From Minisyncoccota bacterium (GTDB taxonomy: Bacteria; Patescibacteriota; Minisyncoccia; Phycocordibacterales; DSPV01), in the NCBI GenBank assembly GCA_036517235.1, contig DATDXL010000001.1, forward strand, positions 1 through 42,083: a stretch of DNA of 42,083 nucleotides, given 5' to 3'. Below are positions 7,622-42,083 of the stretch, piece by piece. A program made the position numbers and the translations under genes. Under the pieces are notes generated by a model. It saw only the letters and a program-made list of their open reading frames with translations. It searched no databases and was not told where the DNA came from. Each line of letters opens with the position of its first letter. Within the stretch, counting starts at the first letter, position 1.

Positions 7622-8050
7622 TTATTTCGCCGCAGCTCCTGCTCCCTTACCCCTCTTGGCACCGTACTGACTGCGACCCTTTTTGCGTCCCTCAACCCCA
7701 CCGGCATCAAGCTTGCCACGCACGACTTGATAGCGAAGACCAACGTCTTTGACGCGGCCGCCACGCAACATCACCACTGCATGCTCTTGCAGGTTATGTC
7801 CGATACCCGGAATATAAGCGGTAACTTCCATACCGTTCGTAAGGCGTACACGAGCGATCTTTCTGATAGCCGAGTTCGGTTTCTTTGGAGTCTTTGTGGT
7901 TACTTTAGTGCAAACACCGCGCTTGAAAGGAGACGCGAAGAAATTCGGACGATTCTTGAGCACATTGAAACTGCGTCGCAGAGCGACAGATTTCGGTTTT
8001 CGCTTAAGCGATTTCCTGTTTCTCTTAATGAGTTGGTTTATCGTGGACAT
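7622..8050 (-). CDS. rpsL: 30S ribosomal protein S12
   Basis: 142 aa with [10 protein letters not shown]..., [22 protein letters not shown] and [14 protein letters not shown]. It has a basic C-terminal extension. Confidence 0.96.
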
Positions 8051-8159
8051 TTCAACTAAAAAACCTCCGAATGAGGTAACACTAATCTAATACGCAGAGT
8101 CAAAAAAAGCAAGTCTCTTAAGCGCTTAGCGAAACGTACAACCCTACTCACAATCGTTT

Positions 8160-9533
8160 TTATGGCGTGTTCTGATAATGATTCTTTCGTGCCAAACTTG
8201 TAGCATCCTTAACTCCCTCACTCACCTGTATTGGATAATGAAACTCCTTGTGTAGATCAAAAAGTCCTGGAGGAAAAGCCTCGCACTGTTTTATAAAATG
8301 CTCTCGGATTTCCTGTAGGTTCGGTTGCACCTTAACTAAAGCGCCGTCCTCTACGAATTTCTGAAGTAATGCTCCCCCCTCACAAGATTCCTCCTCAAGA
8401 GCAATAATATCTCCAGAAAAAAAGGATCCTGATTTTTTTCTAAAAACCTGTTTTCTCCCTGCATAGGTCTCTTTGTTCTCTGAGAACTTAGCCTTTGGGA
8501 CCCATCCATGCGGCTCTTTTACCTCGGCAATCTTATAGACTATTTCCAACTTCGGTGAATCGGCAGAGGTGACTACATCAGTAACCATTCCATAGAAATC
8601 TATCTTGGAACCCTTACCTTTCAGGTCCGATATTTTATATTCATCAAGATTCGACATCCCAATAATTTTTACATGCTGGAGATTGTGAGTATCCAGCATT
8701 TCACGCGCCATGATGCTTTGCGCCAAAAGATCCCCTGAATCTAGAACGATACCGTGCAATTTCTCTCCTCTCTGCTCCATCTCTTTTGCTACGACAATGA
8801 CATTTTCCACACCTGTTTTGACATCATAGGTATCAACCATCACCGAGCCGAGTGGGTTAGCCGAAAGATAGGCCCGAAATGCATCGATCTCAGTGGGATA
8901 TGAGGATATAAAGAAGTGTGACGCGGTACCTCCATAACTCGGGCTGTCGTACCACTTCTGCGCTAAGAGGAGCGACATATTGGTCATACCGGTGATATAA
9001 CCGCTCCGCGCTATCTTTACCGCTGCCTCAAGCCCCTGGGTGCGTAATTCGCCGACGATAAATCCATTAGGTTTCGCAGAGTGGAAAATGCGTGCAATTT
9101 TTGACGCGATCATAGTCTGGAATCCGACAACGTTGAAAAGTATCGCCTCAAAAAGTTGCAGCTCGACAAGCTTACCCGTAAGCCGCATCAGCGGTTCAAA
9201 GGGGAAACAAATAGTGCCTTCATCGAGACCCCAAATATCTCCCGAGAATCTAAATTTTAAAAAGAACTTCTCTTCCTCTTTGGTAAGCGGAAAAACTGTC
9301 TTAAGCCAGGTTATATCATCAGGAGAGAACTTGAAATTCAGGAGAATCTGAATAGCTTCCTCAAGACCAGCGGCCACAAGATAGTTGCGCCGATGTGGTA
9401 ATTCTTTAACATACAGATCAAACGTAGCTTCTTTGTCGCCATACCCGCTCCTCAGATATGCGAGAATACTGAAAAAGTTGCGGCGAGGAACATAGAGAGC
9501 CATATCCTCATTCGAAATAAGATACTTCAACAT
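8160..9533 (-). CDS. pncB: Nicotinate phosphoribosyltransferase family protein
   Basis: 457 aa. The NAPRTase-like N-terminal domain (ATFDLYVKELP..NYLVAAGLEEAIQ) and overall length fit the family. No search was run. Confidence 0.7.
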   Translation of the reverse strand: MLKYLISNEDMALYVPRRNFFSILAYLRSGYGDKEATFDLYVKELPHRRNYLVAAGLEEAIQILLNFKFSPDDITWLKTVFPLTKEEEKFFLKFRFSGDIWGLDEGTICFPFEPLMRLTGKLVELQLFEAILFNVVGFQTMIASKIARIFHSAKPNGFIVGELRTQGLEAAVKIARSGYITGMTNMSLLLAQKWYDSPSYGGTASHFFISSYPTEIDAFRAYLSANPLGSVMVDTYDVKTGVENVIVVAKEMEQRGEKLHGIVLDSGDLLAQSIMAREMLDTHNLQHVKIIGMSNLDEYKISDLKGKGSKIDFYGMVTDVVTSADSPKLEIVYKIAEVKEPHGWVPKAKFSENKETYAGRKQVFRKKSGSFFSGDIIALEEESCEGGALLQKFVEDGALVKVQPNLQEIREHFIKQCEAFPPGLFDLHKEFHYPIQVSEGVKDATSLARKNHYQNTP

Positions 9534-39809: not shown

Positions 39810-40811
39810 TTAGGACTTTGGGCTTGGTGCTTCCAGCTTCTTTCTTACTATAAGCTCCAGCCTTTTGGCTTTGGAATGAGATAGCATTCCAAGATACGAC
39901 GGAAGGTTCTTTCCATTCACACACGAAAGCATGCGGTGCTTTGTTCTTGTCCTTAAAACTGTCCGATGCGGAAGAACGACGTATCCGAGAAAATCAACGC
40001 CTTGCCTTAATTTTCTAATCTCTATTTTCACCGGATGAAGCGAGAGAAATAATCGTTCGCGCAGAAATACTACGATATATCGTAGTATTTCTGTAAGCGA
40101 CGGGTCATCGGAAAAAATAAACACAAAATCGTCGCAGTAGCGGATATAGTATTTCTGTCTGAGTCTGTGCTTTATGAACTGGTCGAGCTCGTTAAGGTAA
40201 ATGTTGGAAAACAACTGGCTCGTGACATTGCCGAGCGGTAAACCCTTTCCACTGCTCGTCTCAAAAGACCTGACGATATGCACAACGAGCCCGAATAGCC
40301 TCTCGTCGGCTACCTTTTCGCGGATGAGTGAAAGAAGAATATGGTGGTCTATTGAATCAAAGAACTTCTTGATGTCACATTTGAGCACATAACCCTGTCG
40401 TCGAAAATTTGAAGTAACCTTTTGAGCAAAAATCTGGAGACGTTCTACGCCTGCATGGGTACCCTTTAGGTTTCGGGAAGAATAGGAGTCGTGGATAAAC
40501 GACGGGTCAAAAACGCCGTAGAGCCTTCGATACACTGCTTGAAAGAGCACTCGGTCTCTGACACTCGCTTTATGGATACGACGCAACTTAGGATCACGAA
40601 CGAAAAAAGATACGTATGGCTCGGGCTTCCATGTCCCTTGTGCTAGACTTTCATGGAGGGCGAAGAGCTCACCCTCAAGAGTAAGTTCAAATGCCGCAAT
40701 GTCCGATTTCTTTCGTTTTCCTCTGGCAAACTCGCGCCAAGCCGCAAAAAGATTTGGAAGTGAGATTACATCACAAAAACTAATACTATGATGACCCCCC
40801 CCCAACGACAC
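39810..40811 (-). CDS. DGR-type reverse transcriptase
   Basis: 333 aa with RT motifs KCDIKKFFDSIDH, LPLGNVTSQLFSNIYL (the DGR-typical [IL]GxxxSQ) and YIRYCDDFVFIF (YxDD). GTG start at 40811. The start is uncertain. Confidence 0.9.
   Translation of the reverse strand: MSLGGGHHSISFCDVISLPNLFAAWREFARGKRKKSDIAAFELTLEGELFALHESLAQGTWKPEPYVSFFVRDPKLRRIHKASVRDRVLFQAVYRRLYGVFDPSFIHDSYSSRNLKGTHAGVERLQIFAQKVTSNFRRQGYVLKCDIKKFFDSIDHHILLSLIREKVADERLFGLVVHIVRSFETSSGKGLPLGNVTSQLFSNIYLNELDQFIKHRLRQKYYIRYCDDFVFIFSDDPSLTEILRYIVVFLRERLFLSLHPVKIEIRKLRQGVDFLGYVVLPHRTVLRTRTKHRMLSCVNGKNLPSYLGMLSHSKAKRLELIVRKKLEAPSPKS
40062..40093. repeat. 32-bp perfect palindrome CAGAAATACTACGATA/TATCGTAGTATTTCTG inside the RT coding sequence
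   Basis: Verified self-complementary. It encodes TEILRYIVVFLRE and shares the 14-bp core TACGATATATCGTA with the palindromes at 24822 and 25305. Confidence 0.8.
40795..40803 (-). repeat. Homopolymer G9 (C9 on the plus strand) at codons 3-6 of the RT
   Basis: The plus strand reads ATGACCCCCCCCCAACG. On the coding strand it is GTG TCG TTG GGG GGG GGT. Confidence 0.8.
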
Positions 40812-40836
40812 CCTACCGATTATACATGCGATAAGA

Positions 40837-41151
40837 ATGCTGCATTTGGAGATTTACCGCATCGGTAAGAAACTGCCGAAGGGCGATAAGCTAGGCATTC
40901 ACGCGGAAGTTGAAAGGAAATGTTTCAAACTTCTCTCATGTTCCATAGAAGCCGCATATAGACCAAGAAAGGAAAAAACGGAAACGCTCGTGGAACTTCG
41001 CTTAACAACAGAAGTACTGAAGAATATCTGGCGCACAGAATGCGAACTTGGGATTGTGGATGAAAAGACCTATCTGCGCATCGCAGAGAAAATGGTAGAG
41101 ATATCAAAGATGACAAATGGTTGGATAACCTACACGCAAAAAGGAGCGTGA
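40837..41151 (+). CDS. avd: Avd-like four-helix-bundle accessory protein (23S rRNA IVS protein family)
   Basis: 104 aa. LEIYRIGKKLPKGDKLGIHAEVERKCFKLLSCSIEAA...LVELRLTTEVLKNIW...ISKMTNGWI follows the four-helix-bundle/Avd pattern. It lies on the strand opposite to TR and RT. Confidence 0.7.
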   Translation: MLHLEIYRIGKKLPKGDKLGIHAEVERKCFKLLSCSIEAAYRPRKEKTETLVELRLTTEVLKNIWRTECELGIVDEKTYLRIAEKMVEISKMTNGWITYTQKGA

Positions 41152-41170
41152 AAGCTCCTTTGATGCGAGA

Positions 41171-41276
41171 AACTTCGGGACGAAACCGCACGTTATCATT
41201 GGCATTGTCCAGATTCCAGTCGTTGACCTTCACCTTGCTATCGTTGAAGTTCACGTTCGGCACGTTACCGTCTGCG
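41171..41276 (-). repeat. DGR template repeat (TR)
   Basis: 41177-41276 aligns without gaps to 41513-41612. At all 20 mismatches this copy has A on the minus strand. Its translation NVPNVNFNDSKVKVNDWNLDNANDNVRFRP has 9 AAY codons. Confidence 0.9.
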
Positions 41277-41440
41277 ATTCGTTTTACCTCATTCCGTCCG
41301 TATCTCCGAGAATATTTCACAAAATTCTCTGTGTCCCACTCGGGGTACTCCGATCATGGTATGGAACAAGGCAAGCAGTTTCTTTGTGTGTGACCAATCG
41401 CCATACGCTTTAGCGGACCGACTGCACAGTCAACGTTAGT

Positions 41441-41472
41441 ATAGAAAATGCACCCTGATTGCTCAAGGTGCA
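41441..41472 (-). terminator. Hairpin plus T run about 20 nt after the target-gene stop
   Basis: On the minus strand, TGCACC-12 nt-GGTGCA is followed by TTTTCTAT. It could be a terminator or a VR-proximal structural element. Confidence 0.35.
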
Positions 41473-41491
41473 CGTGTGAAGAGTACAAGGG

Positions 41492-42083
41492 TTAAGAAGG
41501 AAGGTAAACTGTGGGACGAAACCGCACGAAATCACAGGCATGGCCCAGAGACCAGCCGTCGACCTTCACCCCGCCATCGCCGAAGTCCACGCGCGGCACG
41601 CCACCGTCTGCGGTTTCCGATTCGGCGCACATTGTCACCACCGCTCGATCCAGGAGCTTCTTGGAAGCGTTCTCCAAAAACACATCGGCGCCGAGCACCA
41701 GGCGAACCGGCAAGGTAGTCGTCCGGAGCCCAAACGGGGCAAGGGAGCGCACCGTGCGAGTGTTTACGTTGACGCCACCAAGTTTGCCGAACGGCGCTTC
41801 GTCATCATCCGCAACCCAGCAGCCGAAAGTACCGGTGACGTTGTGCTTTGGCACCGCTTCGTCCAAACTGGTGCTTCCGGAAAATTTCCAATGGTTGCAA
41901 GTGCCAGCCATCAGTTTTTCGTTGGCGCGGTAGAGAAGCTCCGAAGAGTTTCCTTTTTCGTGCATAACAATCAGGCGGGCTTTGAAGTGAGTTGGTGGCT
42001 TCGGAATCGGCAGTGCGGCAAAATCGGTATTGGTGCCATAGACCGTCTTCCACCGTCCTTCCCAGTGCTTCGCCAGCTCTGAT
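41492..42083 (-). CDS. DGR target protein, 5'-truncated by the window edge, with a C-terminal variable region
   Basis: The frame stays open from the window end to the TAA at 41492-41494, with no stop upstream of the listed Met. The last ~35 aa (ADGGVPRVDFGDGGVKVDGWSLGHACDFVRFRP) are encoded by the VR. Confidence 0.8.
   Translation of the reverse strand, partial: SELAKHWEGRWKTVYGTNTDFAALPIPKPPTHFKARLIVMHEKGNSSELLYRANEKLMAGTCNHWKFSGSTSLDEAVPKHNVTGTFGCWVADDDEAPFGKLGGVNVNTRTVRSLAPFGLRTTTLPVRLVLGADVFLENASKKLLDRAVVTMCAESETADGGVPRVDFGDGGVKVDGWSLGHACDFVRFRPTVYLPS
41507..41612 (-). repeat. DGR variable repeat (VR)
   Basis: It matches the TR at 80 of 100 positions (41513-41612). Substitutions occur only opposite TR adenines. 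It ends 15-20 nt before the target stop codon. Confidence 0.9.

Follow-up and report, generated by a model that had tools for sequence, protein, structure and literature searches.

A Patescibacteria-type diversity-generating retroelement with three natural variable-repeat alleles and a G/C homopolymer at the overlap of its RT and avd genes

The stretch analysed here, referred to as the window, comprises 42,083 nt of contig DATDXL010000001.1 from a Minisyncoccota bacterium. At one end of it (positions 39810–42083) lies a cassette that we identify with high confidence as a complete chromosomal diversity-generating retroelement (DGR) of a Patescibacteria-specific clade, in the order target gene with variable repeat (VR), template repeat (TR), reversed avd and reverse transcriptase (RT). 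A preliminary description had placed all four parts of a DGR (RT, Avd, TR and VR) in this interval, and each of them was located there. A repeat scan of the whole window found a single TR and a single VR. The RT gene was also found on a 68,961-bp ENA contig (L001), which differs from the window at 2 bases in 12,274 (40839 and 41405), both inside the cassette. For the comparison with relatives, 80 related loci were fetched, which together with L001 made a set of 81.

The RT gene (39810–40811, minus strand) encodes 333 amino acids and was assigned to the DGR type from its open reading frame, motifs, RVT_1 domain, structure match and PHROG family. It starts with a GTG at 40811 or a TTG at 40805, and the frame is intact in the window contig. 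The protein carries LPLGNVTSQ, which corresponds to the [ILV]GxxxSQ motif 4, together with YCDD, and it matched Pfam RVT_1 (2e-21) and PHROG 1423 (1e-98). Among solved structures, the best match was 8ub7, a 328-aa entry named ‘Reverse transcriptase’ (6e-36, 127 bits), which we take to be the Bordetella phage DGR enzyme bRT, whereas the best group II intron RT structure reached 3e-20. At least 7,997 RT homologues were recovered at E < 1e-20, mostly from Paceibacterota, and the closest of them, at 55–70% identity, came from Paceibacterota/Patescibacteria. A separate observation concerns a perfect 32-nt palindrome inside the RT reading frame (40062–40093, residues ~240–250), with the halves CAGAAATACTACGATA and TATCGTAGTATTTCTG and a folding energy as RNA of −26 kcal/mol (z = −7.6). 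Palindromes with arms of 9–21 bp and differing sequences were present at the same RT codon position in seven relatives (L058, L064, L065, L071, L072, L074, and L076), and the closest relatives had none.

The two repeats form a direct repeat of 110 nt with a spacing of 336 nt and 79% identity. The TR core (41177–41276, minus strand) is a non-coding segment of 100 nt with 29 adenines, and the VR core (41513–41612, minus strand), also of 100 nt, leaves 18 nt to the stop codon of the target gene (41492–41494). The VR sits at the 3′ end of a protein gene as first described, but ‘near-identical’ is too strong a term for 79% identity. Within the 100-nt core, 20/20 mismatches fell on the 29 TR adenines (hypergeometric P = 1.9e-14), and the two non-adenine mismatches of the 110-nt repeat were both located on its ragged 5′ edge. 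When the TR was read in the frame of the target, 28/29 adenines occupied codon positions 1–2. The 15 nt at the 3′ end of the VR (GTGCGGTTTCGTCCC, 41513–41527) are G+C-rich, identical to the TR, and placed like an initiation of mutagenic homing (IMH) site. Past this block the repeats diverge, with ACAGTTTACC in the VR and GAAGTTTCTC in the TR. On the TR-specific side, a GAAGTTTC motif (41169–41176, minus strand) takes an IMH*-like position at which the VR has ACAGTTTA, and a GARRTYTY-like motif was found near the TR end in 23/60 relatives.

Just 3′ of the TR, a stem-loop (AAAGGAGC / GCTCCTTT) is followed by a U-run (41140–41161, minus strand; −16.8 kcal/mol, z = −3.6). This structure looks like an intrinsic terminator and overlaps the stop codon of the convergent avd gene. 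Under a strict rule, a hairpin with a T-run after the TR was detected in 28/60 related loci compared with 2.7% of control windows, and the stem sequences of the relatives were unrelated to one another. Since the hairpin and U-run follow the TR directly, here and in relatives, the TR RNA is probably short and separately terminated, with the module at 41140–41176 probably forming its 3′ end. In the survey of the module 3′ of each TR (window 41140–41176, minus strand, and L009–L088), its components were a GAAGTTTC-like motif, the hairpin, and the U-run. Another hairpin with a T-run follows the stop codon of the target (41438–41473, minus strand; −17.4 kcal/mol, z = −5.5). It overlaps a sigma-70-like promoter match, a pattern match from a consensus scan, which could drive the TR. 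A search of the cassette against Rfam gave zero matches. The single nucleotide polymorphism (SNP) at 41405, private to the window contig, is located in the spacer between VR and TR.

Situated between TR and RT, the avd accessory gene (104-aa form, 40837–41151, plus strand) runs in the opposite direction to RT, TR, and target. Its product matched Pfam bAvd (PF22296) with 6e-10 and 40 bits, exactly equal to the cut-off, PHROG 3206 ‘Avd protein of DGR’ with 6.5e-13, and NCBIfam DivGenRetAVD (NF033474) with 1e-10, under its cut-off. The ATG of the 104-aa form is created by a window-specific SNP, a G at 40839, where all other contigs have ATA. With a tract of 11 nt in the homopolymer described below, a 120-aa form beginning with MTPPPNDTLPIIHAIR can be read from an ATG at 40791, and this form was called in L172.

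The target gene is represented in the window by its 3′ part of 196 codons plus the stop codon (41492–42083, minus strand) and runs off the end; NCBI record HEY4498472.1, on a metagenome-assembled genome contig of a ‘Candidatus Paceibacterota bacterium’, accordingly annotates it as ‘partial’. Extension of the contig had been suggested in the preliminary description, and the full gene of 277 aa was indeed recovered from the 69-kb contig (L001 8487–9320). There were only eight close homologues, in which the VR was the most divergent part. A profile search of 1.84 billion representatives added 295 remote relatives, mostly of ~240 aa and matching residues 80–272; the family members collected were the product of L001 8487–9320 and proteins P0133–P0281. 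A family alignment of 109 sequences was used for the Pfam check and for AlphaFold. No Pfam match was obtained for any of the 109 members, and a profile search with the target against PDB sequences also gave zero matches. The AlphaFold (AF2) model built from the 109-sequence alignment had a predicted local distance difference test score (pLDDT) of 84, mostly > 90 over residues 80–277, compared with a pLDDT of 32 when just 7 sequences were supplied. The top Foldseek matches of the model in PDB and in BFVD were both C-type lectins and non-significant (E ~0.6, template modelling (TM) score 0.2–0.35), and a divergent C-type lectin fold is possible for this predicted structure. The target probably binds a ligand, and neither a signal peptide nor a membrane segment is present in it.

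The same locus was found in at least 10 contigs from other samples. The TR was identical in every contig that covered it, and the VR was present as three alleles. Mismatches to the TR fell on adenines in 20/20, 14/14, and 19/20 cases in the three alleles (P = 2e-14, 2e-9, and 3e-12, respectively). Between the alleles, 17 columns differed, and 16/17 were TR-adenine positions (P = 7e-10), a result that answers, from assemblies rather than reads, the earlier question of whether VR variation is restricted to such positions. Over ~3.7 kb around the VR, just two window-private SNPs and one homopolymer length change were otherwise observed. Because three adenine-restricted VR alleles are found over an identical TR and within near-invariant flanks, the sequences indicate that the DGR has recently been active in adenine-specific rewriting of the VR. 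A metagenome scan for further alleles returned one extra contig, with allele 3, which was carried by L004–L007, L089, and L172. In allele 3, one G is also replaced by C, at a non-adenine position; substitutions of this kind are frequent in DGRs of the candidate phyla radiation (CPR) (Wu et al. 2018, PMC5758913).

The variation was not evenly spread along the VR. Eight adenine substitutions were common to all three alleles and lay at core positions 62–84, in the third toward the IMH-like end (VR 41513–41551), and the variation between alleles was confined to core positions 11–57. In the Bordetella phage DGR, marker transfer is IMH-proximal, and the pattern seen here is the opposite. This IMH-distal variation suggests that conversion tracts were partial or that alleles recombined with one another.

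A C9/G9 homopolymer (40795–40803) is located where the 5′ ends of the RT and avd genes meet. It encodes Gly-Gly-Gly at RT residues 4–6, precedes the avd ATG by 33 nt, and is the only G/C run of ≥ 7 in the 42-kb window. A run of 7–12 G (mode 10) occupied the same position in 67/81 related loci, in which the flanking DNA was not conserved, and the tract was present in just 1/43 viral relatives examined. The comparisons in which the tract was seen covered the window (40795–40803), L001, L009–L088, and L171–L175. Codon usage does not explain the G-run, because GGG accounts for only 19% of the glycine codons in sampled window genes. Canonical in-frame starts were missing from the segment that separates the tract from the conserved RT N-terminus in 47/67 loci, and from the corresponding segment ahead of the conserved Avd ‘LPIVH’ motif in 41/45 loci. 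Since in-frame starts on the near side are missing, both RT and avd would have to read through the tract from far-side starts, which makes their 5′ ends overlap head-to-head. A role of the G-run as a Shine–Dalgarno sequence was rejected for the same lack of starts in front of the RT. Two tract-less relatives show that the head-to-head overlap design is kept without the homopolymer: in L030, the RT reads MNNRQISEGGGHS via GGA GGT GGC, codon-aligned antisense to Avd MATSLTDLPIVH, and in L045, the overlap reads ATGATCCAT versus ATGGATCAT.

To relate tract length to reading frame, a test permitting GTG and TTG starts was replaced by one with ATG starts only, the former being too permissive to inform: with GTG/TTG allowed, the observed tract length was in frame no more often than lengths of plus or minus 1. 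With ATG-only starts, RT and avd were in frame at the same tract length in 23/24 loci. This concordance is partly geometric and not an independent proof, because each ATG is antisense to a His codon, and the assembled tract length equalled the in-frame length in only 8/23 concordant loci. In the species of the window, the RT and Avd phases of the tract are offset by one. The window and L001 have a 9-nt tract and an intact RT, and VR allele 3 was found with both 10- and 11-nt tracts. A gap in one scaffold and the ends of two contigs fall exactly at the tract. Among other species, the members of four further RT clusters (≥ 90% identity) varied in the peptide upstream of the glycines or were recurrently called in N-terminally truncated form.

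The most economical reading of these sequences is that the tract is a candidate slipped-strand phase switch on the mutagenesis machinery. The fuller version of this proposal, to which we give even chances, is that in cellular Patescibacteria DGRs RT and avd start head-to-head over a shared tract, whose slippage would act as a heritable and reversible ON/OFF switch of hypermutation, gating RT and avd together, with most genomes OFF. The tract resembles the poly-G/C contingency loci of Campylobacter, Neisseria, and Helicobacter, in which a G/C run of 7–12 likewise lies in a 5′ coding region and shifts by 1–2 nt between otherwise identical genomes, changing the frame. It differs from them in that a single tract is shared by two divergent genes, RT and avd, whose 5′ ends overlap head-to-head, and in that the putative object of control is machinery for mutagenesis instead of a surface structure. 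Transcriptional slippage at the tract is an alternative to a genomic switch, and so is assembly error; the latter is weakened by tract lengths that recurred from one assembly to another and by the fact that no other homopolymer of the stretch compared was variable.

Several observations weigh against an intact and working element in this species. A 10-nt tract in three other assemblies shifts the RT out of frame, so that it is called with 241 aa, an 11-nt tract in one assembly also frameshifts the RT, and most other assemblies of the species are out of frame. VR allele 3, the most widely recovered, carries a TAG in place of a TR AAG, truncating the target to 251 aa; the TR can generate such stop codons because it holds two AAG codons. 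The window Avd does not include the conserved N-terminal LPIIHAIR segment unless a non-canonical start is used. Finally, Foldseek searches of the target model against PDB and BFVD gave nothing significant by which to assign its fold.

A decaying and now inactive DGR remnant, in which the alleles record past activity, would account for RT frameshifts, loss of the avd start, and target nonsense together. It draws on the RT being out of frame, with 10- or 11-nt tracts, in at least four assemblies, on the stop codon in the commonest VR allele, and on the fact that the upstream ATG of avd is in frame only at a tract of 8 or 11 and the RT at 9, so that the canonical starts are never both in frame in the species. 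However, RT and target are both intact in the window contig, and the alleles differ just at VR adenine sites with virtually identical flanks, pointing to very recent activity. The frameshifts are limited to one homopolymer that is kept in 67/81 relatives and are reversible in principle, and no other disabling mutation was found in the 12 kb compared. We therefore consider decay an unlikely account of the cassette and retain that of a recently active DGR.

The genomic setting bears on whether the element belongs to the host chromosome. On L001, one flank of the cassette carries PaaX-like, RsmE-type methyltransferase, ClpP, RNase Y, and HU genes, and the other carries trigger factor (tig), H+-pyrophosphatase (hppA), NusA, and type IV pilus genes. 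Location on a prophage or another mobile element could be argued from related cassettes, which sit in different genomic contexts (1/80 adjoins tig), and from ~15 IMG/VR contigs that encode RTs at 43–49% identity. Against it, no phage, integrase, or transposase gene was found within 10 kb on either side of the cassette on L001, the synteny around the cassette was identical in all assemblies of the species, cellular RTs reached 70% identity as compared with 43–49% for the best IMG/VR viral relatives, and published surveys class the Patescibacteria DGR clade as cell-encoded (Roux et al. 2021, PMC8144416). A mobile location is thus very improbable, clearly more so than decay. The core-gene flanks and the closer cellular RTs bear out the earlier view of a chromosomal rather than prophage-borne system, but not its description as ‘domesticated’, given that tig is next to the cassette in a single related locus and neighbourhoods vary. 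Divergent from the target gene and 190 nt upstream of it on L001, past the end of the window, lies a regulator-like gene with a PaaX_M domain (7717–8295, minus strand), which was not found beside the related cassettes (80 loci).

The weakest alternative, a non-DGR RT (group II intron, retron, Abi or DRT) beside a chance repeat, takes its support from the top NCBIfam match of the RT, a group II intron RT/maturase model (137 bits), and from further matches to Drt and retron models, but it is effectively refuted already, with next to no probability left, since all these matches are far under their cut-offs, the top solved-structure match is a DGR RT, the SQ motif and an adjacent Avd are present, and the TR/VR mismatches are confined to adenines (P = 2e-14). 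At the sequence level, the cassette is recognised as a DGR by its RT motif, its adenine-restricted TR/VR differences, the C-terminal VR in a protein-coding target, and the accessory Avd, and it has segments in IMH- and IMH*-like positions.

Across the related loci, the same layout recurs. In 61/81 loci, the RT is preceded on its own strand, at near-fixed distances, by a repeat pair with adenine bias (VR-TR-RT layout), and in 53/53 loci with a phmmer-detected avd, this gene is found between TR and RT in opposite orientation. Architecture B3, ‘TR-(avd)-RT’, makes up 90% of CPR DGRs and is almost absent elsewhere (Wu et al. 2018, PMC5758913), and a Patescibacteria-restricted DGR clade (cellular clade 2) is almost entirely cell-encoded, with targets that have no recognisable domains (Roux et al. 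2021, PMC8144416). With its reversed avd, Patescibacteria host, and cellular location, the cassette fits B3 and cellular clade 2. Like these CPR DGRs, it lies on the chromosome of a groundwater Paceibacterota host, has its target/VR, TR, reversed avd, and RT in the same order and with the same orientation, encodes a small target with no recognisable domain or membrane segment, and shows occasional non-adenine substitutions. The preliminary description had called the cassette atypical, yet the reversed avd is the norm of the clade, and the cassette is typical of the known Patescibacteria DGR class, with no novelty in its basic anatomy. The RT/avd homopolymer, the TR-terminal hairpin, and the RT palindrome are undescribed in the searchable DGR literature, a scope that leaves out the CPR survey of Paul et al. 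2017 (Nat Microbiol 2:17045).

Compared with the Bordetella phage BPP-1 DGR (mtd-avd-TR-brt), the cassette is alike in its RT ([IL]GxxxSQ motif, best PDB match 8ub7), in having an Avd, in TR adenines at codon positions 1–2 with many AAC codons, in a VR at the C-terminus of the target, and in a G+C-rich 3′ block that TR and VR share before they diverge, in the manner of IMH/IMH*. It differs in the placement of avd, which stands in opposite orientation between TR and RT, and in being cellular rather than phage-borne. The ~140-nt priming spacer RNA of Bordetella also has no room here, because the hairpin and U-run follow ~10–15 nt after the TR and are succeeded by antisense avd. Moreover, the target is not an Mtd-like tail fibre, and two of the TR codons are AAG, mutable to stop.

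On the Bordetella phage paradigm, from which the RNA intermediate, the RT–Avd complex, and the homing step are taken, we propose the following course. The TR would be transcribed from the minus strand into a short RNA ending in the hairpin and U-run. The RT with Avd would copy this RNA into cDNA, misincorporating opposite template adenines, and the cDNA would replace the VR, with homing guided by the identical G+C-rich 3′ segment GTGCGGTTTCGTCCC. Up to ~17 codons, those with TR adenines in their first or second position, may be recoded in this way within the last ~30 residues of the 277-aa target.

As an element, the cassette is one more well-documented DGR in a large catalogue, and its interest rests on three things: the evidence of natural activity, the homopolymer, and the uncharacterised target family. 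The first is unusual, as one groundwater species holds three VR alleles for a TR that does not vary. As for the second, the regulation of DGR mutagenesis is largely unknown, and the conserved, length-variable homopolymer at the RT/avd overlap would, if the proposed switch is true, give it a concrete mechanism. The third is a family of ~300 small proteins with a confident predicted fold and no known relatives, and it is the main hypermutation substrate in a very abundant bacterial lineage.

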